From assembly GCA_965207465.1 (NCBI GenBank), contig OZ242283.1, positions 2,022,248 through 2,054,247 on the forward strand: 32,000 nucleotides of DNA. The letters are read 5' to 3'. The stretch is from Dehalococcoidia bacterium (lineage in GTDB: Bacteria > Chloroflexota > Dehalococcoidia > Lucifugimonadales > JADFKI01). Of this stretch, positions 4,604 through 29,608 are shown piece after piece. Position 1 is the stretch's first letter; each line of letters begins with the position of its first letter. The translations under genes were made by a program, and so were the position numbers. The notes under the pieces were generated by a model, which was not told the DNA's origin, did no database searches, and saw only the letters and a list, made by a program, of their open reading frames with translations.

Positions 4604-5761
4604 ATGAAGGGAAATTCGACATTGATTGAATGGCTCGGTATCAGTCACCTTTTCGAGCTTTCCGGAACGGAAGCTGTCGCGGGCTTTCTCACGCCGCTAG
4701 CGGTCTTCGCCGTTTTCTTCGTGGCGCAATTGATAGTTCCAGCAAGGCGGGTTACTGGCTATGTCATCAACCCGGAAACTGGCGAAGCCCGCAACTACCG
4801 GCTGAACGGCATTCTGGTATTCGCAATAGCGGTCGTCGTGTGGGCCACTGAGATTACCGGTATGCCACGCGACTGGTTCTATCGCTCCTCTGTCTATGCG
4901 GTGGCTGGCGGAACGGTCCTATGCCTCATATTCTCGCTGCTGGCAGTGTACAGCCGTCCACCGGGCCACATAAAGAACCCGCTTGTCGCGCTGTGGGAAG
5001 GCCGCGCCCTGGAGTTGCCGTTCTTCAACGAACGCTTCGACGTCAAGATGTACCTGTATCTCGTGGGCGGGACGATGCTGTCGCTCAACGCCATGTCCGG
5101 CGCCGCCTATCACTACGAGCTATTTGGCGAAAACTCCAATCCGGGCGTTTTCCTGTATGCGGCGTTCTTTACTTTCTATGTCTTTGACTACTTCGTCTTC
5201 GAGCGCGTGCAGCTATACACTTATGACTTGATTCATGAGCATCTCGGCTTCAAATTGATATGGGGCGGCCTCGTGGTCTATGGCTGGCTCTACATCCTCC
5301 CGCTGTGGGGCATGGCCGCTTACCCGGACCCCGGCTTCTCATCGGTATGGACGTACGTCTGGCTCATTGGAACGGCTACGCTGTTTCTGGTCGGCTGGGG
5401 CATATCGCGCGGCGCCAACATGCAGAAATATACATTCAAGCGATGGCCCGACCGTAAGTTTCTCGGAATCATCGAGCCTGAGTACATCGAGGCGGGAAAC
5501 CGCAAGATTCTGTGCAGCGGCTTGTGGGGCTATGCCCGACACTTCAACTATCTGGGCGAGGGCTTCTTCTGCTTTTCCATCGGGCTGGTATTCGGCTATT
5601 TCACCAATCCGTGGGCTTGGACATACTTTATCTTCATCGTTTCGCTGTTCATCTGGCGTCAACGACTTGACGATAGTGTATGTGCCGAGAAGTACGGCGC
5701 CGAAAAGTGGGCAGAATATCAGGAACGGGTGAAGTACCGGATTCTTCCCGGTGTCTATTAG
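4604..5761 (+). CDS. ERG4/ERG24-family sterol reductase (C-14 / C-24(28) / 7-DHCR type; specificity unresolved)
   Basis: Polytopic membrane protein. Its C-terminus LCSGLWGYARHFNYLGEGF...WRQRLDDSVCAEKYGAEKWAEYQERVKYRILPGVY aligns with the family signature seen in LBR/ERG24 (GWWGxxRHPNYLGD...RDExxCxxKYGxxWxxYxxxVPYRIxPxIY). Confidence 0.9.
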   Translation: MKGNSTLIEWLGISHLFELSGTEAVAGFLTPLAVFAVFFVAQLIVPARRVTGYVINPETGEARNYRLNGILVFAIAVVVWATEITGMPRDWFYRSSVYAVAGGTVLCLIFSLLAVYSRPPGHIKNPLVALWEGRALELPFFNERFDVKMYLYLVGGTMLSLNAMSGAAYHYELFGENSNPGVFLYAAFFTFYVFDYFVFERVQLYTYDLIHEHLGFKLIWGGLVVYGWLYILPLWGMAAYPDPGFSSVWTYVWLIGTATLFLVGWGISRGANMQKYTFKRWPDRKFLGIIEPEYIEAGNRKILCSGLWGYARHFNYLGEGFFCFSIGLVFGYFTNPWAWTYFIFIVSLFIWRQRLDDSVCAEKYGAEKWAEYQERVKYRILPGVY

Positions 5762-6011
5762 CCGGCGTCTATTGGAATCTCGACAGACTTCGCCCCTGCC
5801 GCATCCCTGCAATGAATTGCCGGTCAGACGTGCGCCACGTCGCGCTGCTCGTCAACCTGTTCCGCTTCATCCAGAGCAAGCGGCGAACTTGGCACTGTGG
5901 CGCTCATACGTTGATAAACAGCCAGGAGTCCTGCTTCATCACCGGGCTTGCTGCCGCGAGGCAGCTTGGCGCGGACTACCCATTTCGACGTTCCGGCGGC
6001 GAAGCGTTCGT

Positions 6012-7106
6012 TCAACTATTACGGAGGCTTCCTGCACGGCTCACGACTCCGGAAGGCATAGCGCCTACGCATTCACCCGGGTCAGGATAAAACTGAGAGC
6101 AGTAGCGCCTGAAGGGCATGATCTTACCGTCAGAACGGCAAAGGCGTGGGCGCGCTCGATACTGCTGGCGGCTCCAGATTACCACGTCCTGAAGCACATC
6201 CTGCCTCTGCTGAGATGCGATGAATCGATTTATGATGGGAGCGCGCAATCCCACAGGGAGAAACCCCAGACCCGCAATCATCCTCTTCGGATTGCGTATC
6301 TCCCGCGCCTGAGATACTAAGGTCATGTCGATAAGTGTGCCGTCCACCGGCGTCGCAAGCACCCACAGGCGCAAGTCCATGCCAATCGAGCGTTCGCGTA
6401 TTTCCACGTAAGAATATCCCAGCCCAAAGACAAATGTGCGCGCGGAGACGTCGAAGGTTAATTTGAAAGGGCCGGCTATGGTTCGGGTCCTCTCGAAGTC
6501 GAAGCGGGCTTCGAGGTAGGGACCCTCAACGGACGCTTCCACGACCGGGTTGACACTGTCGTAGCCGTGTACGTAACGCAGGTGCGCGAGATCAACTGAG
6601 TTCTCCGTTGTGTCCTGAGGGTGGCCGGGAAAGCGAAGTGTGTTGATCTCGAAATTGGTCCAGCCCGCCTGGTCAAGCATCCTATCAGGCAGGCTCCATT
6701 GCGGCCGTCGTCCTCCGATGCCCCACCATGCGAATATAAGCCCCAGAATTTCCTGTGTCTCATAGACTCTCAGCCTTGCGGTCTTAGGTGGCGGAGCAAA
6801 GGGCGTGGCGACGCATTGTCCGGTCGCATCGAATTCGTAGCCGTGGAAAGGGCATACAAGTTTGCCGTCGCATACACGTCCTCCGGCGGCCGGTCCGAGG
6901 TCGGCGCCGAGGTGAGGGCAGTAGGCGTCGGCGACACAGACGCGCCCACTCTCGTCGGCCCAGACAATGACGTTCTCGCCCATCCAGGTCTTCTGGATGA
7001 GCTTCGCCCTCAGTACAGCCTCACGAGTCGAGACGAAATACCATCCCTCCGGGAAGGGAGATGGTGACTCAGCGTAGGTGAATTCTCTCCGTCCGGTCAC
7101 CATCAT
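6012..7106 (-). CDS. Rieske [2Fe-2S] non-haem-iron oxygenase, KshA / Neverland (cholesterol 7-desaturase)-like
   Basis: Rieske motif DAYCPHLGADL...(17 aa)...CPFHGYEF. Mononuclear iron motif ENSVDLAHLRYVH (DxxHxxxxH). Its length of 364 aa is typical of KshA-class single-subunit oxygenases. Confidence 0.88.
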   Translation of the reverse strand: MMVTGRREFTYAESPSPFPEGWYFVSTREAVLRAKLIQKTWMGENVIVWADESGRVCVADAYCPHLGADLGPAAGGRVCDGKLVCPFHGYEFDATGQCVATPFAPPPKTARLRVYETQEILGLIFAWWGIGGRRPQWSLPDRMLDQAGWTNFEINTLRFPGHPQDTTENSVDLAHLRYVHGYDSVNPVVEASVEGPYLEARFDFERTRTIAGPFKLTFDVSARTFVFGLGYSYVEIRERSIGMDLRLWVLATPVDGTLIDMTLVSQAREIRNPKRMIAGLGFLPVGLRAPIINRFIASQQRQDVLQDVVIWSRQQYRARPRLCRSDGKIMPFRRYCSQFYPDPGECVGAMPSGVVSRAGSLRNS

Positions 7107-7320
7107 TCATCGCCTCTCAACCGGAATCCCGATCGAACTGCTGCTTTTGTGGACTCCAATGTCGTCGCGTTCTCCAAGTACAGACAATCCAAGAAGTGTA
7201 GGTTCCACGTTCCCGGGCCAGCGATTTTCGGGTTTCAGTTTCCTGTTTAGCAAAGCGGATGAGCAGCGGTAGATAAGGATTCGAGGTCGATACGCACCCG
7301 AACTTACTATTAGTTTAAGG

Positions 7321-7367
7321 TCATGCAGCGTCATGCAGCTCGCACCTTTATAGTACCCTTATAGTCC
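7321..7367. promoter_or_regulatory. Direct repeats in the Rieske/P450 divergent intergenic region (possible operator or promoter elements)
   Basis: Tandem 10-mers TCATGCAGCG/TCATGCAGCT (7321-7340), followed by TTATAGT at 7348-7354 and 7359-7365 (11-bp phasing). They sit in the relatively AT-rich 317-nt gap between two divergent genes. Confidence 0.2.
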
Positions 7368-7423
7368 TTTCCACGACTAAATCGCTAGGGTATCCTTGTT
7401 ACCAATAAGTCCAATACATCAGG

Positions 7424-9475
7424 ATGACGCATGGAAAGGCGAGACTGATGACTCTCTTAATGGAAGGTGTGACGACTCAGCCTCTGAGCTTGCCCGAAGA
7501 ACTCATTCTGATGCTTCTAAATGAGGAGACGGGCTACTTCCATCAGGTCCCGGGCTGGGATTTGAACTGCGCCGTCATCGGAGCCGTGCTTGCGGAACTC
7601 TCGCTCGTATCCTGCATTGACACGGATAGGGATTCCCTCATTCTTCTGGACGATACGGAAGTGGGAGACCCTGTACTCGATCCTATTCTCAAGCAAATTG
7701 TGGCGGAATCTGAGCAGCACAACGCCCAGTACTGGATCGAGCGGCTCGCTCCCCGCGCGGAGTCGATCATTGACTTGACACTGAATCGCCTCGTTGAACT
7801 TGACATCCTCGAGCACCATGACGGCGAGTTCTGGACGTTATCCCGGACTGTCGGCGGGGGCAACCGCGGTGCCGACGGCGAAGACGGCAGCGCGGTGGAG
7901 TTCATTGCCTCTCGCATCAGAAGAGTGCTTTTCAACAACGTGATCCCCTACCCGAGAGAGGTCGTCATCATCTGCCTCCTCAAAACGTGCGATGTGCTGC
8001 GGTTCATATTCCAGCTCGATGACGAGGTGGAGGCGCGCATCGAGGCAATCTCAAATATCGACCTGATAGGCCGCGCCATCACGAATGCGGTAACTCAGAA
8101 CCTCGCCGGTCCCTTGCTTCGACGCTCCGGCCTTACCAGGAAAATACCGGTCGTCTCCCTGAGTAAGTTGCTGTTCAATCCGCATGTTCGCAGCGGAAAC
8201 GTCCCCGCGCTTTTCGCGGACCTGGCGCGAGAGTACGGCCCTGTCTTCGAGTTACGCCCTCCGTTCGTCGAGCCGATGATTATCCTGGCAGGGGCAGAGA
8301 CGAATCGCTGGGTGCATCGACAAGGACGCTTGCACCTGAGAACCAGGGACTACTTTGCCGATTTCGAGAAGGTCTATGGCGCGTCTGGAGTATTGCCCTC
8401 TCTGGACGGGGCGGACCATTTCCGGCTCCGCAAGTCGATGTCGTCGGCATATTCTCGCGGCAGGCTGATGGGGCAGATGGACCAGCTCATTCATCATGTG
8501 CGGAATCACATGGCAGACTGGACGGTTGGAGACACCTACCCCGCAACGCGCATGTGCCGCCGAATGGTAAACTCGCAGATTTCTCCCCTCTTTGTCGGTG
8601 TTGAATCCCAGGACATATTTGACGATTTGGCGGAGTACAAGGAGCGGGCACTTAGCACGCACATCGTGAAGGCGCTGCCCAAGTTCATGCTGCAAACTCC
8701 GGGCATGAGACGCCGCGCGAAATCGGTGGACACATTGCTGGAACGGATACAGAGCGTGCATACGCCTGCCCAGCGGGCTGACGCTTCCCGAAACCTTGCG
8801 GACGACATTCTGAGTCTGCACGCGAGCGACCCGCAGTTCTTCCCGGAGTCCAACCTACGCTTCGCTCTTTCGGCCGCGCTGATTGCCAGCGTGTACCTCG
8901 GCGACGCGTTCAGCTTCGCGCTGTACGCCATGGTTTCGCAGCCGGACCTCTACGCGAGAATCCAAGAAGAGGCCGATGCCCTTTTCGAGAATGGCGATCC
9001 GAATCCAGAGGACCTCACTCCGTCCTCGATTGATGTGACCCACCGCTTCCTTATGGAGAGCCTGCGACTCTACCCGATAGTGCCGGTGTCCATGCGGCAT
9101 GTGATGAATTCGTGCGTGGTCGAGGGCTACGAACTGCCGGTGGGGGCGAGGCTCGTTATCGCTCAGGCGGCGACGCATTACATGGACGAGTTCTTCCCAG
9201 ACTCAACCACATTCGACATCGACCGATACCTGCCTCCGCGCAACGAGCATCACAATCCCGGCTATGCGCCTTACGGACTGGGCACGCATATATGCCTCGG
9301 CTCCCGGTGGATGGAAACGCAACTTGCCGTCAATGTGCTTATGGTCGCGCACTACTTCACGCTAAGAGTGTCACCCGAAGACTACAAGCTCAAGTTCAGT
9401 CCGCTGCCATCCTCGAAGCCGAGCAAGAAGCTGAAGTTCCGCGTCGCGGAGCAGCGGCACGAGATGAACTTCTAA
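7424..9475 (+). CDS. Fusion protein: N-terminal GPP34/GOLPH3-like domain plus C-terminal cytochrome P450
   Basis: Residues ~20-225 fit the GPP34 pattern: LSLPEELILMLLNEETGYF..., AVIGAVLAELSL, GDPVLDPILKQI, REVVIICLLKTCDVLRFIF. Residues ~240-683 are a P450, with the K-helix ESLRLYP (ExxR) and the haem-thiolate loop YAPYGLGTHICLGSRW (FxxGxxxCxG). Alternative starts exist at 7448 and 7460. Confidence 0.88.
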   Translation: MTHGKARLMTLLMEGVTTQPLSLPEELILMLLNEETGYFHQVPGWDLNCAVIGAVLAELSLVSCIDTDRDSLILLDDTEVGDPVLDPILKQIVAESEQHNAQYWIERLAPRAESIIDLTLNRLVELDILEHHDGEFWTLSRTVGGGNRGADGEDGSAVEFIASRIRRVLFNNVIPYPREVVIICLLKTCDVLRFIFQLDDEVEARIEAISNIDLIGRAITNAVTQNLAGPLLRRSGLTRKIPVVSLSKLLFNPHVRSGNVPALFADLAREYGPVFELRPPFVEPMIILAGAETNRWVHRQGRLHLRTRDYFADFEKVYGASGVLPSLDGADHFRLRKSMSSAYSRGRLMGQMDQLIHHVRNHMADWTVGDTYPATRMCRRMVNSQISPLFVGVESQDIFDDLAEYKERALSTHIVKALPKFMLQTPGMRRRAKSVDTLLERIQSVHTPAQRADASRNLADDILSLHASDPQFFPESNLRFALSAALIASVYLGDAFSFALYAMVSQPDLYARIQEEADALFENGDPNPEDLTPSSIDVTHRFLMESLRLYPIVPVSMRHVMNSCVVEGYELPVGARLVIAQAATHYMDEFFPDSTTFDIDRYLPPRNEHHNPGYAPYGLGTHICLGSRWMETQLAVNVLMVAHYFTLRVSPEDYKLKFSPLPSSKPSKKLKFRVAEQRHEMNF

Positions 9476-9590: not shown

Positions 9591-10643
9591 CTAAAGGGGT
9601 TTACGAGCCAGAAAGCAGTAGAGCGGCGTGAATATCCCTGCCCTGCCGCCCGCGACATAGGCTTTAGCGGTACGGTCCATCAAGCCTATGACATCCGCGG
9701 AGCCTTTCGGAAACACTCTTACCACCTCGGCAAGCCTGGCTGCCCCTATCAACGACTTGCGGCCGAGAGGAGTTCTACGCAGGGCGCTGCCTAGCGTTCC
9801 GCGCCGAGTTTCCATGGGCTGATACCAAGGTGTGGTCGGCCCGTCCTCCTCGACGGCGTAGTCTCTCCCCTCAACGACCTGAAATCCCGCCGCTTCGAGC
9901 GCCAAGTTCACCTCGCCGATCGTCTCTATATCCCTGAGGGCGATGCCGCGCATCAGCTCCCGCTTGATGGCGCGATGCCGACTGTCGCCGGTGTCGAAGT
10001 CATCCGTCATGCACATTTCCTGACCCCAGAAGAGCGCTCCGGGTTTCAGCACGCGGTATATCTCCGCGAACGCGCCTGCCTTGTGCGGCGCATGGCAGGT
10101 CGATTCAATCGCGTAGCCCCCGTCAAAGGCGCAGTCCTCGACGGCGCCCATGTCCATGAAACTGCACGCAAGGTAGTCCATCAGGTGGTCAAGCCCCGCC
10201 TCGGCGTTCAACGACTTCGCCTTGTCCAGCTGGATTTCGCTGTTATTCAGCCCCACTACCCTAACGCCGGCCTCCCGCGCTACACGGCGCATCGGGCCGC
10301 CGATGCCGCAGCCAATATCAATGACTGTCATGCCCTCTCGCAACTCCAACTTGTCAATCATCAGCCGTTGATGCCGGACTTTGGAGTCTTCCAGACTTTC
10401 CCGGGGCGACAGCGGCGCGAAGTGCAGGGACTCACCCCAGCCGAACACCATGAACTCGCTGCAAAGGTCGTAGTATTCCCTGACGGTTTCGGCGTGGTCG
10501 TATGCCGTCGCGTTCTTATCTTCCAGGCTCGCCCTGTCAGTCCAGCCGTCGAATTCTCTCACGCGACGGTGAGTGTCGGAGCCGTGGTACGCGGACTTCA
10601 GTCCCCTGGACAGTTCACGGAGTTGCGGGAAACTTTTCAACAT
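9591..10643 (-). CDS. Sterol C-24 methyltransferase (ERG6/SMT family)
   Basis: Near-colinear motif match to yeast ERG6. [21 protein letters not shown] corresponds to [56 protein letters not shown] corresponds to [63 protein letters not shown] corresponds to [26 protein letters not shown]. The C-terminal sterol-MT domain (PWYQPM ... [19 protein letters not shown]) is also present. Confidence 0.93.
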   Translation of the reverse strand: [350 protein letters not shown]

Positions 10644-10670: not shown

Positions 10671-13172
10671 CTATGATGCGCTCTCGCCGCTCTCGTGTCT
10701 CAGATGCACTTCCTCAATCGTCACATCAAGATCGTTCCACATGCGTTCGATGGAAGAGCGCAGCCGCATGTTCTGGTACGCGCCCCATACGACCATGGCA
10801 GGGAGAACGACAAGAATGGCGACGACCAGCGAATAGACGATAGTGATTGTCGCCGTGATGCCGAATTGCTGGGACGCAGCGAGCGGAGAGGCTATCAGCA
10901 CTCCGAATCCCAAAGCGGTCGTCAGCGCGGAGCCAAGCAGCGCCGAGCCGGTAGTCGCAAGGGTTCGGATTGCCGCCCTCTCCGGGTTTCGCAGGCGGAA
11001 GTATTCCTCCCGGTAGCGATGAATTACATGTATGGTGTAGTCCACGCCAATGCCGATAGACAGCGCCGTGATGATGGATGTAACCAGTGTGTAGGGAATA
11101 TCCAGCAGCGCCATCGTTCCCAGCACGCAGATAAGCACGAAGACGATTGGCCCCACCGCGACGAGTCCCAGCGCAGGCTGTCGGAGCGTAACCCAGAAGA
11201 AGATTGTGAGGATGCCGAGCGCCACCGCGATGGTCGTGCTGATTGCCTCCGTCTGTCCATCCGTTATCTGATCGGTCACAGCGACAGCGACAATTTCGCC
11301 GGAAATCGCGGTGATCGTGCTGTCTTCACCAAACCAGAGGTCCTCGGTCTCCTCCTGGATCATCCTCGACTGCTCGGGATCACCCAGATAGGTCGGAAAC
11401 TGGAGCAGCATTGTGTCAATGCCGTTCGGATCGTTAATCAGGAAGTGCGCCAGACCCGGTTCCCTTTCTACCAGCTTGTCAAGGACTTGCTGCATCTTTT
11501 GCCGGTCGAGTTCCACCCCGGAGGATGCTTCGTGGAAGAGCGCTTCAATTTCTGGATCGTAGTTGTCACCCGGCTCTCCTGAGTCGTCGATCCAGTCTTG
11601 CAGGTGCGAGTAGTATGAGGTCTGGATCGGCCCTGCCGCCGCCCGCGGGCGACGACTTTCGTCGTCGAAAGCGGCCGTGAGGTCTTGAATGTTCAGAAGG
11701 GTTCGAGTGTCCGTAGCCTCAGCCTTTACCAGCAGGCTGGCGACCTCGGTAGAGCCGCCGACTGCCGCCTCAAGCGTGTCCATGTCCTCCACCACACTAC
11801 CGCCTCTCGGCAGGATGTCGCGTATGCTGAATTCGGACTTAAGCCCGGTCGCGGCGAAGCCAAGCCCGACCGTAATAAGGACGACGGCCACGATGTATGG
11901 TGCGGGCCAGCGCGTGACCCATCTCCCCAGCTGCTCCGCCAGTGAGCTGATGCCGGGCAAGGCGTTCGCCATGGGACGGGGAGGCTTCAAGGTGCCGCGC
12001 GATTCCCGGCGGCGGTCGATGATTGTGCGGCCCGCCGGTATAAGCGTCAGCATTACTATCAGACTCATTCCCACGCCAAGCCCCGCGACGATGCCGAAGT
12101 CGCCAATCACGCCGATTGGCGAGAACAGGGTTGCCAGCAGGCTCACGATAGTCGTAACGGCGGCCAGCGTCAGCGGGACTGTGACGTTTCGCAGTCCGAC
12201 ACGCACCGCTGCCAGGACCGGCTCGCCCTCAAGCCGCTGCTCACGGTAGTGGGAGACCGCCTGGATGGCGTAGTCCACAGTCAGGCTTATAATGATGACG
12301 GGAACCATAGCGGTGAGCGAACTAGGCGGGCCTATCAGCCCCAACCCGTTCGGCCCAAGCCAGCCTTCCGCCCCGACGATCCATGTCAGCGAAATTATCA
12401 GTCCCGCCAGAGTCAGCAGCATGTCCGACAGCGTGCGCATGAATACCAGCAGCAGCACGGCAATCAGCAGCAGCGCCAGCCCTATCAACGGCGCCATGCC
12501 TGTCTCAGTCGCTTCCCTGTACTCGTCCTCCACAATCGTCGGCGATAGGCTGCTCACACTCAGAGAGCCTTGACTGTCCGCCGCCAGCTCGTTAATACGG
12601 CGTTCCGCGTCCTTCACCCTCTCGTCGCCTGTGTCAGTCAGCCGTATGTTCGCGATGGCGACCGGTGTGCCGTCATCATCAGTTCCGGTCATCGCGTCGA
12701 TTGCGGCCTGAATCTGCGGGATGCTCCGGACGGCATCTATTTCAGCCTGAGTGATCCCCTCCAGACTCTGCCTTTGCAGCGCGGCTTGGACCAGGAACGA
12801 TGGAGAGATGATCGGATCGGATGGCACCAGCAGCCCGCCCGTACCTGTACCACCCACCCCCGGGTCCGTGGCGATGGCGTTGATCAGTGCGCTCATCTGT
12901 GAGATGCCGCCGGGTGTCAGAGCGTTCCCGCGGAAGATAAGCGTTACGATGCTGACATCACCGGATTCGCCGAACAGTTCGTCTATTTCCTCAGTCGCGG
13001 TGGCAACGGCGTGTCCGGGCGGAAGGAAGGCGACATCCGCCCCTTCAGTCGGCGGCGCGCGAAAGGTAGTTCCCGCAGCCAGCAGAACGGTTATCGCTAT
13101 CAGGACGATGATCGTGATATACGGACGAGCCGTGACGAGCCGGCTGAAATTGAAGAGAATCTGATTCATCAT
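10671..13172 (-). CDS. MMPL/RND-superfamily lipid exporter (HpnN-like, sterol-sensing-domain-type fold)
   Basis: 833 aa with a pseudo-twofold architecture: TM1, a ~190-aa loop, TM2-6, then TM7, a ~190-aa loop, TM8-12. Duplicated motifs LTVDYAIQAVSHYRE and IGVDYTIHVIHRYREE are typical of MMPL/HpnN proteins. It ends 28 nt upstream of the SMT gene on the same strand. Confidence 0.9.
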   Translation of the reverse strand: MMNQILFNFSRLVTARPYITIIVLIAITVLLAAGTTFRAPPTEGADVAFLPPGHAVATATEEIDELFGESGDVSIVTLIFRGNALTPGGISQMSALINAIATDPGVGGTGTGGLLVPSDPIISPSFLVQAALQRQSLEGITQAEIDAVRSIPQIQAAIDAMTGTDDDGTPVAIANIRLTDTGDERVKDAERRINELAADSQGSLSVSSLSPTIVEDEYREATETGMAPLIGLALLLIAVLLLVFMRTLSDMLLTLAGLIISLTWIVGAEGWLGPNGLGLIGPPSSLTAMVPVIIISLTVDYAIQAVSHYREQRLEGEPVLAAVRVGLRNVTVPLTLAAVTTIVSLLATLFSPIGVIGDFGIVAGLGVGMSLIVMLTLIPAGRTIIDRRRESRGTLKPPRPMANALPGISSLAEQLGRWVTRWPAPYIVAVVLITVGLGFAATGLKSEFSIRDILPRGGSVVEDMDTLEAAVGGSTEVASLLVKAEATDTRTLLNIQDLTAAFDDESRRPRAAAGPIQTSYYSHLQDWIDDSGEPGDNYDPEIEALFHEASSGVELDRQKMQQVLDKLVEREPGLAHFLINDPNGIDTMLLQFPTYLGDPEQSRMIQEETEDLWFGEDSTITAISGEIVAVAVTDQITDGQTEAISTTIAVALGILTIFFWVTLRQPALGLVAVGPIVFVLICVLGTMALLDIPYTLVTSIITALSIGIGVDYTIHVIHRYREEYFRLRNPERAAIRTLATTGSALLGSALTTALGFGVLIASPLAASQQFGITATITIVYSLVVAILVVLPAMVVWGAYQNMRLRSSIERMWNDLDVTIEEVHLRHESGESAS

Positions 13173-13550: not shown

Positions 13551-13564
13551 ATTGGCATGCCAAT
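13551..13564. promoter_or_regulatory. Perfect 14-bp palindrome ATTGGCATGCCAAT upstream of amidase 1 (possible operator)
   Basis: Read directly from the sequence. It lies 68 nt upstream of ATG 13632 and shares CCAAT/ATTGG half-sites with the inverted repeat at 13229-13244. Confidence 0.25.
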
Positions 13565-13631
13565 AGGTCGGGGCTATCGTCGTAACAGATTCACCGCAGA
13601 CCAGGCCGGAAGAGAGACAGGAGAGCGCACT

Positions 13632-15032
13632 ATGGCAGACATCATTTACGCATCGGCTAAGACTATGGCTCAGGCGATTCAGGACAAAGAAGTGTCGGCG
13701 GTCGAACTGGTGGACGCGCACCTGGCGCGTATCGAAGAGGTGAACCCGACAATCAACGCGGTTGTGACGCTCGCCGCGGAAAGAGCGCGGGCCGAGGCGC
13801 AAGAAGCCGACGACGCTCTTGCGCGGGGCGACAGCAAGGGCGCGCTGCACGGCGTTCCGTTCACGCTGAAGGACTCGATAGACACAGAGGGCGTAGTTAC
13901 GACCGGCGGCACGCTAGGCCGCAAGGACTTCGTGCCCGATGCCGATGCCACAGTCGCCGCAAGGCTCAGAGCGGCTGGTGGCATATTGCTGGGCAAGTCG
14001 AACACGCCGGAGCTGACGCTTGCCGCAGAGACCGACAACCTGGTCTATGGACGAACGAACAACCCGTACAACGTCGAGCGCACGACAGGCGGGAGCAGCG
14101 GGGGCGCGGGGGCTATCGTGTCATGCGGGGGCGCGGCATTCGACATAGGCAGCGACACAGGCGGCAGCGTGCGCTATCCGGCTCATTTCTGCGGCATCGC
14201 GGGGCTGAAGCCGAACTCCGGTAGAGTGCCGCGCACGGGGCACATCGTGTCGCACAGCATGGGCGCGGTGGATTCGCTGACGCAGAACGGGCCGATGGCG
14301 CGGTATGTCGAAGACCTTGCGCTGATTCTGCCTATCATATCGGGGCCGGACTGGAGCGACCCGTTCATCGTGCCAGTGCCTCTAGGCGATCCTGCGGACG
14401 TGGACATTAGCAGTCTGCGAATTTGCTTCTACACGGACAACGGGATAGGCACGCCGACCGATGAGACTATCGCTGCTGTGCGCTCGGCTGTCGCGGCTCT
14501 GGCGGACACGGGCTGCTCGATAGTAGAAGATGTACCTTCGATCATCGCGGAGAACCCGGAAATCTCCAACAAGCTGTCGGGCGGCGACGGCAGGGTATGG
14601 ACGCAGCGGCAGCTGGATAAGTGGGGCACTACGGAGATATTCCCATATCTGGAGCGTCGGATTGCCAGGGCGTCAGAGGAGTTCGAGGTGGAAGTGGGAG
14701 ACTTTACGGCTATGCTGGAACATGTGGATAGCTTCCGCAGCACGATGCTGGGCTTCATGCAGGACTACGATGTCATAGTCTGCCCTGTGGCGGCATTCCC
14801 TGCCCAGCCGCACGGAGAGTCGCTTGAGGACAGGAACCAGCCGGGCATGAGCTACACGGCGACATACAACATCACGGGCTGGCCATCGACCGTCATACGG
14901 GGCGGCACATCGCCGGAAGGGTTGCCTATCGGAGTGCAGGTTGTGGCGCGGCCGTGGCGCGAGGATGTGTCGCTGGCGGTGGCGCAGTATCTTGAGGGCG
15001 TGACCGGTGGGTGGGTGAAGCCGCCGATTTAG
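13632..15032 (+). CDS. Amidase-signature (AS) family amidase, paralogue 1
   Basis: Catalytic Lys context PFTLKDSIDT, GGSSGGAGA, and nucleophile context GSDTGGSVR. The start is set at MADIIYASAK by homology with paralogues 2 and 3 (GGAGAG upstream); the ORF track extends to 13557. Confidence 0.9.
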   Translation: MADIIYASAKTMAQAIQDKEVSAVELVDAHLARIEEVNPTINAVVTLAAERARAEAQEADDALARGDSKGALHGVPFTLKDSIDTEGVVTTGGTLGRKDFVPDADATVAARLRAAGGILLGKSNTPELTLAAETDNLVYGRTNNPYNVERTTGGSSGGAGAIVSCGGAAFDIGSDTGGSVRYPAHFCGIAGLKPNSGRVPRTGHIVSHSMGAVDSLTQNGPMARYVEDLALILPIISGPDWSDPFIVPVPLGDPADVDISSLRICFYTDNGIGTPTDETIAAVRSAVAALADTGCSIVEDVPSIIAENPEISNKLSGGDGRVWTQRQLDKWGTTEIFPYLERRIARASEEFEVEVGDFTAMLEHVDSFRSTMLGFMQDYDVIVCPVAAFPAQPHGESLEDRNQPGMSYTATYNITGWPSTVIRGGTSPEGLPIGVQVVARPWREDVSLAVAQYLEGVTGGWVKPPI

Positions 15033-15328: not shown

Positions 15329-15420
15329 GGAAGGGACTCTGAGCAGCATTTTAAGCATTTACCTACCCCTGTCAGCCTGTCAAGGGGGAAGGGACGAATT
15401 AGAGACACAGGATCGTGATT

Positions 15421-16818
15421 ATGAGCGAGATTATCTATGCGTCGGCGAAGAGTATGGCGCGGGCGATTCGGGACAAGGAAGTGTCGGCGGTGGAGCTGGT
15501 GGAGGCGCATCTGGCGCGCATCGAAGAGGTGAATCCGGCTCTGAATGCGGTGGTGATGCTGGCGGCAGAGCAGGCGCGTGCGGAAGCGGCTGAGGCTGAT
15601 GCCGCTCTCGCGCGGGGAGCCCACAAGGGGACGCTTCACGGGGTGCCGTTTACACTGAAGGACTCGATTGACACTGAGGGCGTGGTTACGACGGGCGGGA
15701 CGATGGGGCGCAAGGACTTCGTGCCGGACGCGGATGCGACGGTGGCGGCGCGGCTGCGGGCTGCGGGCGGCATACTGCTAGGCAAGACGAACACACCTGA
15801 AATCACATACGCGGGCGAGACGGACAACCTGATCTTCGGGCGGACGAATAACCCATTCGACCTTGACCGAATGCCCGGGGGCAGCAGCGGCGGAGCGGGG
15901 GCTATCGTGTGCTGCGGCGGAGCGGCGTTCGATATCGGCAGCGACACGGGCGGCAGCATACGAGGTCCGGCGCACTACTGCGGCATTGCGGGGATAAAGC
16001 CGAACTCCGGGCGTGTACCACGCACAGGGCATATTGTGCCGCATAGCTTCGGCGCCGCCGATTCGCTGACTCAGAATGGGCCGATGGCGCGGTATGTCGA
16101 GGACCTTGCGCTCGTCCTGCCAGTCATATCGGGGCCTGACTGGGACGATCCGCATATCGTGCCCGTGCCGCTTGGCGACCCGGCGGATGTGGATATCAGC
16201 GGGCTGCGGGTGGCTTTTTACGATTACAACGGCGTGAATATGCCGACTGCGGAGATCCAGGCGGCGGTGCGAACCGCTGCTTCGTCGCTCGACGATGTCT
16301 GCGCCTCGGTGGAGGAGGACCTGCCACAAGCAATCCCTGACAATCCTGAGATAAACAGTCAACTGAGCCAGGGAAACGGACAGGCAGGCGCTCAGCGGTT
16401 ACTGGAGAGGTACGGCACTACTGAGACGCACGCATGGATTACCCGTCTCCTGGAGAGGGCGAGCGAGAAAATGGTCTCGGTGCAGGAGTACACGGCAGTT
16501 CTGGAGAATGTCGATGCCTACCGCAGCGAGATGCTGGGCTTCATGCAGAACTACGATGTCATCGTATGCCCGGTGTCATCGTATGCCGCATTGCCGCACG
16601 GAGAATCAATGTTCAACGAAAAGTACACAGGGATAGGCTACATGGCGACATACAATATCACGGGCTGGCCCTCGACCGTGGTGCGCGCGGGCACTTCGCC
16701 GGAAGGCCTGCCCATCGGCGTGCAGGTTGTGGCGCGTCCGTGGCGTGAGGACGTGTCTCTCGCGGTGGCGCAGTATCTTGAAGGCGCGCTTGGCGGGTGG
16801 GTGAAGCCGCCATTGTAG
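15421..16818 (+). CDS. Amidase-signature family amidase, paralogue 2
   Basis: Same motifs as paralogue 1 (PFTLKDSIDT, GGSSGGAGA, GSDTGGSIR). Colinear with paralogues 1 and 3 over its full length. ATG 15421 is preferred over GTG 15415. Confidence 0.9.
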   Translation: MSEIIYASAKSMARAIRDKEVSAVELVEAHLARIEEVNPALNAVVMLAAEQARAEAAEADAALARGAHKGTLHGVPFTLKDSIDTEGVVTTGGTMGRKDFVPDADATVAARLRAAGGILLGKTNTPEITYAGETDNLIFGRTNNPFDLDRMPGGSSGGAGAIVCCGGAAFDIGSDTGGSIRGPAHYCGIAGIKPNSGRVPRTGHIVPHSFGAADSLTQNGPMARYVEDLALVLPVISGPDWDDPHIVPVPLGDPADVDISGLRVAFYDYNGVNMPTAEIQAAVRTAASSLDDVCASVEEDLPQAIPDNPEINSQLSQGNGQAGAQRLLERYGTTETHAWITRLLERASEKMVSVQEYTAVLENVDAYRSEMLGFMQNYDVIVCPVSSYAALPHGESMFNEKYTGIGYMATYNITGWPSTVVRAGTSPEGLPIGVQVVARPWREDVSLAVAQYLEGALGGWVKPPL

Positions 16819-16882: not shown

Positions 16883-18280
16883 ATGGACGAGATTATCTAC
16901 GCATCGGCGAAGAGTATGGCGCGGGCGATTCGGGACAAGGAAGTGTCGGCGGTGGAGGTGGTGGAGGCGCATCTGGCGCGGATCGAGGAGGTGAATCCGG
17001 CTCTTAATGCGGTGGTTCAGCTTGCGACGGATCGCGCAAAGGTTGAGGCTGTGGAGGCGGATGCTGCGCTTGCGCGGGGTGAGGGCAAGGGCGCGCTGCA
17101 TGGGGTGCCGTTTACGCTGAAGGACTCGATTGATACTGAGGGCGTGGTTACGACGGGCGGAACGATGGGGCGCAAGGACTTTGTGCCTGATGCGGATGCG
17201 ACGGTTACGGCGCGGCTGCGCGCGGCGGGGGGCATACTGCTGGGCAAGACGAATACGCCGGAACTTACTTATGCGGGCGAGACGGATAATCTGGTGTATG
17301 GGCGGACGAACAACCCGTTCGACGTTAGCCGCGCACCGGGCGGCAGCAGCGGGGGCGCGGGGGCTATCGTATGCTGCGGGGGCGCGGCGTTCGACATCGG
17401 CAGCGACACGGGCGGCAGCATACGCGGACCGGCGCACTACTGCGGCATTGCGGGAATCAAGCCGAACTCAGGGCGCGTTCCGCGCACGGGGCATATCGTG
17501 CCGCACGGTCTGGGCGCACTCGACTCGCTGACGCAGAACGGGCCGATGGCGCGGTATGTGGAAGACCTTGCACTCATCATGCCGATCATATCCGGTCCCG
17601 ACTGGAGCGATCCTTTCATACCGCCGGTGACACTTGGCGACCCGGCAGATGTGGATATAAGCGGGCTGCGCGTCTGTTTCTACACGGACAACGGCGTGCG
17701 TACTCCCACTGCGGAGATAATGTCGGCGGTGCGGAATGCGGCTGCCGCGCTCGACGATGTGTGCGCGTCCGTCGAAGAGGACTTGCCGCGCGTCATTGGA
17801 GAGAATCCTGAAATAGCGGAGATGCTGCGTCAAGGGGACGGTCAGGCAGGGGCGCACCGGCTACTGGCGCAGTACGGCACGACCGAGACGCATGAATGGA
17901 TGACAAGACAGCTGGAAAAGTCTAGCGAAAGAGTCGTTCCGGTTGGCGAGTACACGGAAGTTCTAGAGCAGGTGGACGCCTATCGCAGCGCTATGCTGGG
18001 GTTCATGCAGAACTACGATGTCATTATCTGCCCGGTGTCATCGTTTGCAGCGCTCCCGCACGGACTGTCCATGACGGACGAGTACCGCTCAGGCATGAAC
18101 TATACTGGTACATACAACATCACGGGCTGGCCCTCGACCGTGGTGCGCGCGGGCACTTCGCCGGACGGCCTACCCATAGGCGTGCAGGCGGTGGCGCGTC
18201 CGTGGCGAGAGGATGTGTCGCTGGCGGTGGCGCAGTACCTCGAAGGCGCGCTCGGCGGCTGGCAGAAGCCTCCGATGTGA
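16883..18280 (+). CDS. Amidase-signature family amidase, paralogue 3
   Basis: Same motifs as paralogues 1 and 2. By eye, roughly four-fifths of its positions are identical to paralogue 2. Confidence 0.9.
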   Translation: MDEIIYASAKSMARAIRDKEVSAVEVVEAHLARIEEVNPALNAVVQLATDRAKVEAVEADAALARGEGKGALHGVPFTLKDSIDTEGVVTTGGTMGRKDFVPDADATVTARLRAAGGILLGKTNTPELTYAGETDNLVYGRTNNPFDVSRAPGGSSGGAGAIVCCGGAAFDIGSDTGGSIRGPAHYCGIAGIKPNSGRVPRTGHIVPHGLGALDSLTQNGPMARYVEDLALIMPIISGPDWSDPFIPPVTLGDPADVDISGLRVCFYTDNGVRTPTAEIMSAVRNAAAALDDVCASVEEDLPRVIGENPEIAEMLRQGDGQAGAHRLLAQYGTTETHEWMTRQLEKSSERVVPVGEYTEVLEQVDAYRSAMLGFMQNYDVIICPVSSFAALPHGLSMTDEYRSGMNYTGTYNITGWPSTVVRAGTSPDGLPIGVQAVARPWREDVSLAVAQYLEGALGGWQKPPM

Positions 18281-22944: not shown

Positions 22945-23268
22945 ATGCCAGCATCCGGACAGGACCTACTTGAGGAGTCGATAGACAACTGCCAGCAGAT
23001 TGTGGCGGGCCTCGGCACAGTTAACGAATCGTGGGAGACTTCGATAGTTGAAATACTGGAGAAGTTCGACGAGATAAGCGACACCTTCTTCTTCAAGACG
23101 ATGCCCAGCGTACCCGCGGCGCGCGCAGTGGTGCGCGATTCCGAGTCCGTCCTTGCATTGCGTCAGTCGGAGGAGTGGGACGAATTCGGCACGGCGATTA
23201 CGACGCTCATCGCGTCCTCGCAGAACCTCATCGAAAAGGCAGGGATGAAGGGAGTGACGCTGACGTGA
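22945..23268 (+). CDS. Hypothetical acidic protein (107 aa), translationally coupled to the SDR gene
   Basis: GGAGG sits 9 nt upstream of the ATG. The stop overlaps the downstream GTG start (GTGA at 23265-23268). No motif is recognisable. Confidence 0.55.
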   Translation: MPASGQDLLEESIDNCQQIVAGLGTVNESWETSIVEILEKFDEISDTFFFKTMPSVPAARAVVRDSESVLALRQSEEWDEFGTAITTLIASSQNLIEKAGMKGVTLT

Positions 23269-24155
23269 GCGGCATTGTTCTTGTTACGGGAGGCGCGGGC
23301 AGCGTGGGCCGCATGCTGGTGGAGAAGCTGGTGGCGGACGGTCAGGGCGTGCGTATATTCGACCTGCCTTTCATGGACTTTTCCGGTCTGGAGGACAGGG
23401 ACGGCATAGAGATTGTCAAGGGCGACATCACGGACGAGGCGCAGGTGGCGGACGCGATTTATACTGATGATGACGGGGGCGTGAGTTCCGTCGTTCACCT
23501 GGCTGCGCTTCTGCCGCCGAACAGCGAGCGCGACCGCGACCGCACATTCGGCGTGAATGTGGGCGGCACGGAGAACATCATCAAGGCGATGGAAGCCGGC
23601 GCGCCCGACGCTACACTGATATTCACATCGTCTATCAGCACCTACGGGAACACGATGGACGAAGAGCCGCCGGTGCGCGTTGAACACACACAGTCCGCCA
23701 TCGATATATACGCGGACAGCAAGATTGTGGGCGAACGCATGGTGCGCGAATCGTCGCTGAACTGGATTGCGATGCGGATCGCGGGCATTATGGTGCCCGC
23801 GTTCATGGAGCCGCCAAGCCCGTGGCCTTTCGTCGCCGAGCAGCGCGTCGAGATGGTGCATCGGGACGATGTGGTGGACGCTCTGTTCGCGTCCGTGAAC
23901 GCGCCTGATGCGGCGAACAAGGTTCTGAATATCGCGGGCGGTCCCACATGGCAGATGCGCGGCGAGGACTACGCGCGCGACTTCTATGGCTTTATGGGCG
24001 CGCCGTTCGAGGATGTCGATTACCGCCAGTCGCCAGGCTGGGTGGACTGGTACGACACTGAGGAGTCGCAGCGGCTGCTGAGTTATCAGAACAGGTCGTA
24101 TCAGCACTACTCGGACGAGATGCACGCTATCATAGAGGCGATGATGGCGGAGTGA
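23265..24155 (+). CDS. NAD-dependent epimerase/dehydratase (extended SDR)
   Basis: VLVTGGAGSVGRMLVEKL (TGxxGxxG) and the catalytic YADSK (YxxxK). The start is set at GTG 23265; the ORF track extends to 23175 inside the upstream gene. Confidence 0.85.
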   Translation: MSGIVLVTGGAGSVGRMLVEKLVADGQGVRIFDLPFMDFSGLEDRDGIEIVKGDITDEAQVADAIYTDDDGGVSSVVHLAALLPPNSERDRDRTFGVNVGGTENIIKAMEAGAPDATLIFTSSISTYGNTMDEEPPVRVEHTQSAIDIYADSKIVGERMVRESSLNWIAMRIAGIMVPAFMEPPSPWPFVAEQRVEMVHRDDVVDALFASVNAPDAANKVLNIAGGPTWQMRGEDYARDFYGFMGAPFEDVDYRQSPGWVDWYDTEESQRLLSYQNRSYQHYSDEMHAIIEAMMAE

Positions 24156-28377: not shown

Positions 28378-28830
28378 ATGGTAAGGACAGGCGAAGTTGC
28401 GCCGGACTTCACGCTTCCAAGCACGTCTGGGGACATTACTCTGAGTGCAGTTGTGGCTGATAAGCACGTCGTGCTTGCTTTCTATTTGGAGGACAAGACG
28501 CCCGGCTGCACCCAGATGCTGAGTGCGCTGCAAGGCGAGTACGACACCATCCGCGAACTGGATGCCGAAGTGATAGCGATAGGCGCAGACTCACTCGATT
28601 CGCACGAGGCGTTCAGCGAATCACTCGGCGGCTGTCCGTTCCCGATTGCCAGCGATTCCGGCTTGAACGTTGCCACTACTTACGGCGCGCTCGCGGATGA
28701 CGGCAAGGGCATGGTACGCGCTGTATTCGTGGTGGATAAGGGCGGGCGCATCGCACACAGCATCCCGTGGTTCCAGCCGGGCAGCACGGCTCAGTTCTTC
28801 GAGATATTTCAGGCGCTCGGCCTGGAGTGA
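28378..28830 (+). CDS. bcp: Thiol peroxidase, Bcp/PrxQ-type peroxiredoxin
   Basis: APDFTLPSTSGD...VVLAFYLEDKTPGCTQ contains the peroxidatic Cys in the PGCT motif. The start is ATG 28378, or alternatively GTG 28369. Confidence 0.85.
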   Translation: MVRTGEVAPDFTLPSTSGDITLSAVVADKHVVLAFYLEDKTPGCTQMLSALQGEYDTIRELDAEVIAIGADSLDSHEAFSESLGGCPFPIASDSGLNVATTYGALADDGKGMVRAVFVVDKGGRIAHSIPWFQPGSTAQFFEIFQALGLE

Positions 28831-28832
28831 GC

Positions 28833-29582
28833 ATGGTCGCGCCGACACTCGTCGCTCGACGGTTGCCTGCCCGATGGTTAATTTCGGCGCTTCTACCGGC
28901 GCTTGCGCTGCTCATATACGGTTGCGGAGACACTCCCCCACCTGCCACGCCGGCGCAGACTGCCACGCCTACGCCCATCAACCCGCAGGCGATACTGGAC
29001 GACTGCGGGCGGGCGATGTCCACCCTGACATCCTTCGGCTTCCGCGTTGAACACGACGATGACGGAGGCACACCGCTCGACCAGGGCATGGTCCTGACGG
29101 AGGCGAGCGGCAGTGTTTCCGGCTCCGACAGGCTCGCGGTGGATTTCAGCGGTACGGCTGGCAGCTTCGCAGTGAAGGGCAGCCTCATTGCGATCGGCGA
29201 GAACGTCTATATGACCAATCCGCTGTCCGGCGAGTGGCACGCCGTTTCGTCTGCGCTCAATCCCCTGGCGTTCTTCGAGCCGTCTCAGGGAATCGCGGAC
29301 ATACTATTGCAGGTACGGGACACCACGCTCATATCGCACGATTCCGCCGAGTATCGCATTGGCGGCACGCTGCCCTCAGTCGCGCTCGCGCCTCTGTTCG
29401 GAGAGACCGATGCACGGAGCAGCGTAAATGTTACGCTGACAATCGACAAGGTGAATCTGTACCTGACGAGTACGCGGCTTGAAGGGCGCATTACCCCCAA
29501 CGAAGCGGACGGTCTGGTACGCACAATAACGCTATCTCAGTTCGACGAGCCGGTGAACATCGCCATACCGGACGGGGGCTAA
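28833..29582 (+). CDS. Lipoprotein, LppX/LprAFG (LprG-like) family candidate
   Basis: Signal peptide with lipobox LLIYGC, followed by a Pro/Thr linker. The ~200-aa body is colinear by eye with the LprG pattern (…SFGFRVEH…, LIAIGENVYMTNPLSGEW, YRIGGTLP, TLSQFDEPVNI). The start is ATG 28833, 2 nt after the bcp stop. Confidence 0.6.
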   Translation: MVAPTLVARRLPARWLISALLPALALLIYGCGDTPPPATPAQTATPTPINPQAILDDCGRAMSTLTSFGFRVEHDDDGGTPLDQGMVLTEASGSVSGSDRLAVDFSGTAGSFAVKGSLIAIGENVYMTNPLSGEWHAVSSALNPLAFFEPSQGIADILLQVRDTTLISHDSAEYRIGGTLPSVALAPLFGETDARSSVNVTLTIDKVNLYLTSTRLEGRITPNEADGLVRTITLSQFDEPVNIAIPDGG

Positions 29583-29608
29583 CATCGATGTACAGGATGG
29601 GGAGGATG
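29576..29608 (+). repeat. Junction motif copy J7 (GGGCTAACATCGATGTACAGGATGGGGAGGATG)
   Basis: Contains the TAA stop of the lipoprotein gene (29580-29582) and three in-frame ATGs of the MFS gene (29588, 29597, 29606). Confidence 0.7.

Follow-up and report, generated by a model that had tools for sequence, protein, structure and literature searches.

Introduction

A protein architecture consisting of an N-terminal GPP34 domain followed by a cytochrome P450 was described by Ferreira et al. (2025; Microbiome 13:4, PMC11706023), who named it GPP34_L and reported 656 such proteins, found only in genomes of sponge symbionts, across many phyla. The long form was present in 80% of the sponge Dehalococcoidia metagenome-assembled genomes (MAGs) and was transcribed in situ. 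Rare fusions of GPP34 with Rieske proteins and with PotA (an ATP-binding cassette ATPase), as well as P450 genes near short GPP34 genes, were also reported, and GPP34 was proposed to be a secreted effector that binds phosphatidylinositol 4-phosphate (PI4P) and blocks phagosome maturation. Here we analyze a gene of this type located in a stretch of 32,000 nucleotides from a Dehalococcoidia bacterium (positions 2,022,248 to 2,054,247 of the forward strand of contig OZ242283.1, assembly GCA_965207465.1), hereafter the window, to which all coordinates refer unless another locus is named. The encoded protein is a member of GPP34_L with nothing different in the protein itself, and its distribution in Dehalococcoidia and other sponge-symbiont phyla matches the published one.

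Two other groups of described systems are relevant for comparison. The first comprises the eukaryotic adaptors GOLPH3 and Vps74. Wood et al. (2009; PMC2806290) located the PI4P pocket of GOLPH3, formed by W81, R90, R171 and R174, and made mutants of it, and a highly electronegative face of the protein, situated just above the membrane, has been reported as the binding site for the short, basic tails that membrane enzymes carry (bioRxiv 10.1101/2025.06.26.661719). The second comprises the sterol genes of sponge symbionts: the same phyla carry horizontally transferred ERG24-CYP51-lanosterol synthase clusters ('CSGs'), with sterol methyltransferase (SMT) genes scattered elsewhere (Kelly et al., 2022), and SMTs of symbionts have been shown in vitro to alkylate the side chains of sterols (Brown et al., 2023).

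An earlier note on this DNA, prepared from the sequence alone, knew of no described GPP34-P450 fusion. In fact the fusion has been known since 2025, and what is new here is the analysis of its gene neighborhood, of the loss of the lipid-binding residues and of the I-helix. In the light of these three aspects we propose, with moderate confidence, that the protein is a cytoplasmic sterol-tailoring P450 held at the membrane or at a transporter by its GPP34 domain, which would act as an adaptor. This interpretation differs from that of Ferreira et al. (2025), in which the protein is a secreted PI4P effector and not a docked sterol enzyme.

Results and Discussion

The fusion is a real gene, present in at least six phyla

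The earlier note had recognized a 683-aa open reading frame (ORF; 7424-9475) with a GPP34 N-terminus and a complete P450, and had pointed to positions 8100-8150 as the place where a frameshift or an assembly join might lie. Using the two Pfam models named there, both domains were found far above the curated cutoffs: GPP34 (PF05719) covers residues 23-224 of the 683-aa ORF and profile positions 1-199 of 201, scoring 107 bits (cutoff 29.1; E 1.8e-30), and p450 (PF00067) covers residues 257-670 and profile positions 19-458 of 462, scoring 116 bits (cutoff 22.8; E 2.1e-33). The same architecture was then sought in databases. In a collection of 5.8 billion proteins, the 120 best clusters were examined and all 120 carry both domains in proteins of about 675 aa, several of them encoded on megabase-scale contigs, while a scan of one genome per species identified a relative in 211 genomes. 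From these, 80 loci were kept, all belonging to one clade and 68-92% identical to the query; many lie on closed chromosomes assembled from long reads, and the fusion is a single ORF of 674-677 aa in most of the 80. An exhaustive search of representative sequences showed that the architecture is kept at 25-40% identity, with dozens of proteins of 650-690 aa matching residues 13-671 of the query; stand-alone P450 relatives of around 450 aa were also found.

These data leave virtually no weight to the idea that a frameshift or a faulty assembly at about 8100-8150 has merged two genes. No support for it was found: the linker has low values of predicted local distance difference test (pLDDT), but this is expected of a linker, and against an artefact stands the presence of one ORF of the same length in most of 80 independent genomes and in more than 120 protein clusters, together with its persistence in fusions down to 25% identity. 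An artefactual join was thus rejected on comparative grounds, and the single in-frame fusion is real. The full-length AlphaFold2 (AF2) model has a pLDDT of 88.6 and a predicted template modeling score (pTM) of 0.86, with weak confidence in the linker (residues 222-228).

The start of the gene has probably been misplaced by the mechanical ORF call at 7424. Its homologues have 675 aa, and an ATG or GTG aligned with position 7448 is kept in close relatives, which is not the case for the ATG at 7424; since a Shine-Dalgarno (SD)-like GGGAG/GGAAAGG also precedes 7448, this is the likelier start. Residues are numbered below on the resulting 675-aa protein.

The nearest relatives of the fusion are in Dehalococcoidia and SAR202 MAGs, whose names (SB06xx, RHO, COS, Plut) suggest sponge or coral metagenomes. 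The loci span Dehalococcoidia/SAR202, other Chloroflexota, Latescibacterota, Binatia, Nitrospirales, Thermodesulfobacteriota, Gemmatimonadota, Longimicrobiales, Palauibacter, Rhodothermaceae and others, that is, at least six phyla, across which the fusion is about 70% identical. A Latescibacterota/Binatia copy is 73-74% identical to the query, with many Dehalococcoidia copies reaching only 68-72%. Because some copies from other phyla are closer to the query than many from its own class, sequence comparison indicates that the cassette of genes described below has spread horizontally.

The GPP34 domain keeps the GOLPH3 fold and has lost the PI4P pocket

Among PDB entries, a profile built from 22 N-terminal domains matched GOLPH3 and Vps74 alone (E 1.9e-11 and 3.3e-11, respectively); the family profile was needed for this, a single-sequence phmmer search giving only a borderline result (E 0.39). 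Likewise, when the AF2 model of the domain (pLDDT 80.8) was searched with Foldseek, significance was reached only by the same two proteins (TM 0.70/0.67; 0.70 to 9QPQ). The domain therefore belongs to the GPP34/GOLPH3/Vps74 fold family. No flavodoxin, ferredoxin or reductase match was obtained with it, and a redox-partner fusion of the BM3 or CYP51-ferredoxin type was discarded. Compared with the structures of GOLPH3/Vps74 (3KN1, 9QPQ, 2ZIH), to which it is around 18% identical, the domain shares the fold, the beta-hairpin and an overall acidic character, but it lacks the disordered COPI-binding N-terminus and, whereas the eukaryotic proteins are free adaptors, it is covalently joined to an enzyme.

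In the profile alignment, W81, R90, R171 and R174 of GOLPH3 correspond to P35, I44, E105 and I108, so that none of the four pocket residues is kept. Among the 46 family members compared, Ala is found almost invariably at position 90 and an acidic residue (Asp or Glu) in most cases at position 171, while Arg appears at position 174 in only about half of them and never in the clade of the query. The net charge of the domain is -21 (0 to -23 in the family), versus -2 for the P450 domain (-3 to +18 in the family). Phosphoinositide binding, which the earlier note had brought in by analogy with GOLPH3, finds no support in view of the replacement of all four residues and of this charge, which, as an overall value only, is consistent with an acidic client-binding face. 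The beta-hairpin (ILEHHDGEFWTL, 7805-7840), whose two strands span residues 121-124 and 128-131, is retained, and Phe, Trp and Leu are among its residues. By analogy, the bacterial domain thus looks like a GOLPH3 without the lipid-headgroup pocket that may have kept its client-binding character. Residue 56 (7613-7615), a Cys in this protein, is Arg in 90% or more of the family members, among them relatives of 89-92% identity (motif S-R-I-D-T-D).

Neither a signal peptide, a Tat motif nor a transmembrane segment was detected in the fusion protein, whose N-terminus shows no n/h/c-region organization. A signal peptide or transmembrane anchor was also rejected on hydrophobicity, the highest Kyte-Doolittle mean over 19 residues being 2.0 and lying inside a core helix of the GPP34 domain. 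In microsomal P450s the membrane anchor lies N-terminal to the P450 hinge, and it is directly N-terminal to this hinge (family consensus in Table 1) that the GPP34 domain sits.

These features bear on the published model, according to which the GPP34 protein is secreted, binds PI4P of the host on the phagosome and blocks phagolysosome maturation, with the P450 as an accessory. The domain does have the GPP34 fold, reports of the architecture come solely from sponge symbionts, in which it is transcribed in situ, and hosts among sponges and corals are suggested by the MAG names of homologues. Nevertheless, we consider this model quite unlikely for the protein analyzed here, given the complete loss of the PI4P-binding residues, with an acidic residue in place of R171 in most of the family, the strongly negative charge and the lack of signal peptide and Tat motif. 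A heme P450 moreover requires cofactor loading and reductants in the cytoplasm, and, as shown below, genes for sterol enzymes and for inner-membrane transporters are closely linked to that of the fusion. This only published functional proposal took into account neither the gene context nor the binding residues: the words 'sterol' and 'steroid' are absent from the text of PMC11706023, and pocket residues, gene cassette and I-helix are likewise not treated there. In a literature search of incomplete coverage, no paper tying GPP34-P450 to sterols was found. Docking of the P450 through its GPP34 domain, a targeting role already envisaged in the earlier note for the extra domain, remains the best idea.

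A P450 of its own family with an altered I-helix

The P450 domain is complete, with the ExxR motif (ESLR) and the heme loop YGLGTHICLG at the places where the earlier note had located them, and E537 and R540 of ExxR, R593 of the PERF region and the Cys of the heme loop are invariant in an alignment of 46 diverse family members. Its best match among solved structures by sequence is the CYP51 of Methylococcus capsulatus (McCYP51; E 6e-22, 20-21% identity), while by fold it is equally near CYP184A1, CYP102 (BM3), Methylococcus CYP51 and CYP120A1 (Foldseek; target TM around 0.8, 15-21% identity). None of the NCBIfam equivalogs was reached or approached. It is classed as a eukaryote-like bacterial P450 forming its own family. 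The comparison with CYP51, including the M. capsulatus CYP51-ferredoxin fusion (6MCW, 7JJ1), reveals a common eukaryote-like P450 fold class and a bacterial sterol context, but the I-helix reads AGHHTSS/GQHTS in CYP51 and ASVYLGD in the query, and the domain fused to the P450 here is not a redox partner as it is in M. capsulatus. Orthology to CYP51, which the earlier note had already doubted, was rejected on the low identity, this I-helix and the equal closeness of other CYP families by fold. The sponge-symbiont sterol clusters also carry a separate canonical CYP51 (the ERG11 homologue in Brown et al., 2023), from which the P450 of the query is distinct.

With respect to the I-helix, three independent HMMER alignments, to CYP51, CYP97A3 and CYP102A5, pair A480-S481-V482-Y483-L484 with A-G-x-(D/E/H)-T. 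Y483 falls on the acid position and Leu (L484) or a gap on the Thr position, with a deletion of one residue. The earlier note was thus right in calling this segment non-canonical and the Thr replaced; the acid that it considered present corresponds to D486, three residues downstream of the acid position and unconserved beyond the close clade. In the family alignment, the majority of the distant GPP34-P450 fusions keep a canonical AG(L/I)(D/E)T, while the clade of the query (relatives of at least 37% identity) shows the one-residue deletion and A-S/A-x-Y-(L/I/T/V)-G; of 81 members of this clade, at least 63 have A(A/S)L(I/V)AS(V/A)YLGDA. For P450 research, the existence in nature of this large clade, with its Tyr-Leu and its deletion, and of sister clades in which AGxDT is retained makes a clean comparison possible.

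The acid-Thr motif of the I-helix is typical of the P450 superfamily, although not obligatory: EryF, CYP74 and CYP152 naturally lack the acid-alcohol pair and have an intact Cys loop. To our knowledge, the combination of Tyr-Leu with a one-residue deletion matches none of these three. Because both members of the pair are gone, unconventional proton delivery or a non-standard chemistry would be expected. Since the Cys loop is normal, the sequence still allows for a possible redox-partner-dependent cycle, in which O2 activation, if any, might use another proton route involving Tyr483, a substrate hydroxyl or water. Alternatively, the enzyme could carry out an atypical reaction such as desaturation, C-C cleavage or rearrangement.

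The gene belongs to a conserved cassette with sterol-related enzymes

In the window, the fusion gene is surrounded by genes for a Rieske oxygenase, an SMT homologue, a transporter of the resistance-nodulation-division (RND) superfamily and a sterol reductase of the ERG4/ERG24 family (Table 1). The best solved relatives of the Rieske protein are the 3-ketosteroid 9alpha-hydroxylases KshA (E 2e-25); it was rejected as SdmA (36 bits versus a cutoff of 600), and the RND protein was rejected as BstA or HpnN, falling far below both cutoffs. The guess of the earlier note that the substrate could be a sterol fits well with this set of neighbors, namely the ERG4/24 reductase, the KshA-like Rieske protein, the sterol methyltransferase and the RND transporter with its sterol-sensing-domain match.

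The proteins of the window were then searched against the 80 loci, each comprising the fusion gene and 10 kb on either side, by simple ORF calling and BLAST thresholds. A Rieske/KshA_C oxygenase was found in 64 of the 80 and an SMT in 56, followed by the MMPL-type RND transporter (45/80), a flavin adenine dinucleotide (FAD)-dependent amine-oxidase-like enzyme resembling LkcE (36/80), a major facilitator superfamily (MFS) transporter (24/80) and an LppX/LprG-like lipoprotein (22/80). An AcrB-type RND transporter was detected in 18 of 80, mostly in loci where no MMPL-type RND was found, and less frequent were a membrane-fusion protein (14/80), an outer-membrane factor (9/80) and the ERG4/ERG24 reductase (six or seven of 80). 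The neighborhood is therefore strongly conserved within the clade of the query, with a content that varies even among near relatives. In the closest one (L001, whose fusion is 92% identical) there is no sterol methyltransferase between the fusion and the RND genes.

Compared with the sterol clusters of Kelly et al. (2022) and Brown et al. (2023), the cassette occurs in the same phyla, shows the same horizontal spread and has SMT and ERG24-family genes in common. On the other hand, it lacks the cyclase, the canonical CYP51 and SdmA/B, and contains the GPP34-P450, the KshA-like Rieske protein, the FAD oxidoreductase and the RND pump, which those clusters do not have.

The presence of a KshA homologue linked to MMPL and LprG-type lipid transport genes could also be read as sterol catabolism, with RND and MFS-LprG proteins importing host sterol, and a side-chain P450 of the CYP125 kind plus the KshA-like hydroxylase attacking it as a carbon source. 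We regard this as very unlikely: the second most conserved neighbor is a biosynthetic sterol methyltransferase, KstD, Hsa, Fad and beta-oxidation genes are absent among the conserved neighbors, and the P450 is not near the CYP125, CYP142 or CYP124 families.

Distant fusions also tend to lie near transporters

Six loci with fusions of 25-40% identity were inspected. An ACR_tran RND gene lies beside the fusion in three of them, and in a fourth there are only split RND fragments, several kb away; another fusion is followed by an FtsX/MacB permease, and another by an ecdysteroid-kinase-like (EcKL/APH) kinase and an MFS transporter. Altogether, an RND, FtsX/MacB or MFS transporter is adjacent or one gene away in five of the six. 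A stand-alone P450 relative is located three genes from MlaE-MlaD-OEP-MlaC. The theme common to the family is thus a P450 together with a transporter of hydrophobic molecules, to which the clade of the query adds sterol-specific enzymes.

This broader pattern raises the question of whether the P450 participates in general detoxification, oxidizing lipophilic metabolites of the sponge or its symbionts and not sterols specifically, with the neighboring pump exporting the products. The distant paralogues, which adjoin RND, MacB or MFS pumps and EcKL/APH kinases and lack sterol-specific genes, are in agreement with this, and there may be two paralogues on one contig. In the clade of the query, however, the conserved partners are sterol-specific (the Sterol_MT_C methyltransferase, the KshA-like Rieske protein and ERG4/24), and the lost O2-activation pair suits a broad-spectrum hydroxylase poorly. 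Detoxification fits the distant paralogues better than the clade of the query, for which we consider it unlikely.

Several details of the distant loci deserve mention. EcKL/APH kinase genes, each followed by an MFS gene, are found downstream of the fusions in L081 (16258-17460) and in L087 and L088 (10243-11457 in both). L081, one of the loci where an RND gene adjoins the fusion, has two GPP34-P450 paralogues on one contig (1-383, 7784-7999, 8001-10010). Directly upstream of its fusion lies a gene for a 71-aa hydrophobic, membrane-like protein, with a single base between the stop of one and the start of the other; from this arrangement, the small protein may be translationally coupled to the fusion and is a candidate membrane partner of GPP34.

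A proposed sterol-tailoring P450 docked by GPP34

Taken together, the results lead us to favor a sterol-related, membrane-docked role for the fusion protein. It would be a cytoplasmic heme-thiolate P450 acting on a sterol or a sterol-like triterpenoid, and one enzyme of a compact cassette that moves horizontally among sponge symbionts. The most frequent genes of this cassette are those for the KshA-like Rieske protein, the GPP34-P450, the sterol C-24 methyltransferase and the RND transporter, often with the FAD oxidoreductase and the pair of MFS transporter and LprG-like lipoprotein, and occasionally with the ERG4/24 reductase. The GPP34 domain would serve as an adaptor at the position of the microsomal anchor, having lost the PI4P pocket and kept the fold, the hairpin and the acidity, and these retained characters suggest docking near transporters or membrane enzymes. 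In this way the P450 could be kept at the inner face of the membrane, beside the transporter or the membrane sterol enzymes that supply or remove its hydrophobic substrate.

Several observations weigh against this interpretation. Genes for oxidosqualene cyclase, CYP51 and a redox partner are absent from the window and from the 10 kb around the fusion in every locus, so the locus itself gives neither the sterol nor the source of electrons. Squalene epoxidase, ferredoxin and ferredoxin reductase genes were equally absent from the window, and no ferredoxin-like ORFs were found within 10 kb in 91 loci, a motif scan of the small ORFs of these loci and of the window returning only spurious out-of-frame matches. 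The sterol linkage holds for one clade only, none of whose loci falls below 68% identity to the query, and the distant fusions are accompanied neither by SMT nor by other sterol-specific neighbors. The assignment of the PI4P-binding positions relies on a profile alignment at about 18% identity, and the Phe, Trp and Leu of the hairpin may allow direct contact with lipids. In addition, an occurrence confined to sponge symbionts (Ferreira et al., 2025) is equally compatible with a role directed at the host. As for the missing cyclase, a supply of sterols in these bacteria or in their host is plausible given the clusters reported by Kelly et al. (2022) and the SMT activity shown by Brown et al. 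(2023).

More tentatively, these elements can be combined into a wider picture in which bacterial GPP34 domains are adaptors and not phosphoinositide effectors, tethering soluble lipid-modifying oxygenases (P450s, occasionally Rieske proteins) and transporter ATPases to membrane partners. The clade of the query would then provide the missing tailoring enzyme of a mobile cassette for sterol modification and export, and with a P450 that lacks the acid-alcohol machinery, symbionts from many phyla living in sponges would produce or remodel unusual sterols with alkylated side chains. If this were true, bacteria could account for part of the 'sponge' sterol biomarker signal, a point that bears on the geobiological debate about whether symbionts contribute to the sponge biomarkers based on side-chain-alkylated sterols (Brown et al., 2023; Kelly et al., 2022). 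A further suggestion, drawn from a GPP34 domain that is acidic and has no PI4P pocket, is that client binding, and not lipid recognition, is ancestral for the GOLPH3 fold, in which case the binding of client tails by GOLPH3/Vps74 would predate the Golgi. The conservation of the Rieske/GPP34-P450/SMT/RND cassette at about 70% identity across phyla makes sterol turnover, docking and PI4P binding accessible to experiments.

Organization of the locus and other features of the window

The coordinates of the fusion gene, its domains and motifs, and the neighboring genes are collected in Table 1.

Table 1. Features of the GPP34-P450 gene and its surroundings in the window.
Feature	Coordinates	Strand	Remarks
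GPP34-P450 fusion gene	7448..9475	+	675 aa from conserved start; mechanical ORF 7424..9475, 683 aa
GPP34/GOLPH3-like domain	7490..8095	+	Pfam; profile vs PDB; AF2 and Foldseek
Interdomain linker and hinge RRSGLTRKIPVVS	8120..8158	+	Low pLDDT at residues 222-228; family consensus IPxxxGLPxLGN
Cytochrome P450 domain	8192..9433	+	Pfam; PDB sequence and fold matches
I-helix motif ASVYLGDA	8885..8908	+	Replaces AGx(D/E)T(T/S)
ExxR motif, ESLR	9056..9067	+	Glu and Arg invariant across family
PERF-like motif, FDIDRY	9212..9229	+	
Heme-thiolate loop YGLGTHICLG	9272..9301	+	Cys invariant
Rieske [2Fe-2S] oxygenase, KshA_C domain	6012..7106	-	Divergent from fusion; CxH...CxxH and HxxxxH motifs
Sterol C-24 methyltransferase homologue	9591..10643	-	Convergent with fusion; CMAS and Sterol_MT_C, signature GWGESLHF (GWGxSxHF)
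MMPL/HAE3-type RND transporter	10671..13172	-	Sterol-sensing-domain match; beyond methyltransferase
ERG4/ERG24-family sterol reductase	4604..5761	+	Upstream; occasional cassette member
FAD amine-oxidase-like cassette gene, frameshifted C-terminal remnant	5827..6058	+	About 77 codons; two pieces, 96% and 80% identical
Divergent Rieske/fusion intergenic region	7107..7447	.	Conserved block at about 7366-7398; SD-like site before 7448

The FAD amine-oxidase-like gene, of which only the remnant is left in the window, is complete in 36 of the 80 loci and in the closest relative (L001, 7275-8633), and the ERG4/ERG24 reductase gene occupies here the place of its 5' part. The sequence arrangement suggests a recent gene replacement inside the cassette, the ERG4/24 gene having taken the place of the FAD gene. 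In the intergenic region between the Rieske and fusion genes, the block CCTTTCCACGAC...GCTAGGGTATCCTTG (around 7366-7398) is conserved among the closest relatives L001-L004 and is a possible promoter or operator. The same region contains at 7320-7339 a tandem duplication of 10 bp (GTCATGCAGC GTCATGCAGC) that is absent from relatives.

A gene for an LppX/LprG-like lipoprotein (28767-29582) adjoins that of an MFS transporter (29588-31069) some 16 kb away from the cassette; in 22-24 other genomes this pair lies directly beside the Rieske/P450/SMT/RND genes. A short-chain dehydrogenase/reductase of the epimerase/3beta-HSD type, encoded at 23175-24155 on the forward strand, matches SdmB weakly (41 bits versus a cutoff of 600) and is not linked to the cassette elsewhere. 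Finally, the segment 13557-21802 encodes three amidase paralogues in tandem (13557-15032, 15415-16818 and 16883-18280), followed by Glug-motif and DUF362 proteins, a block that is shared only with the closest relative, L001.

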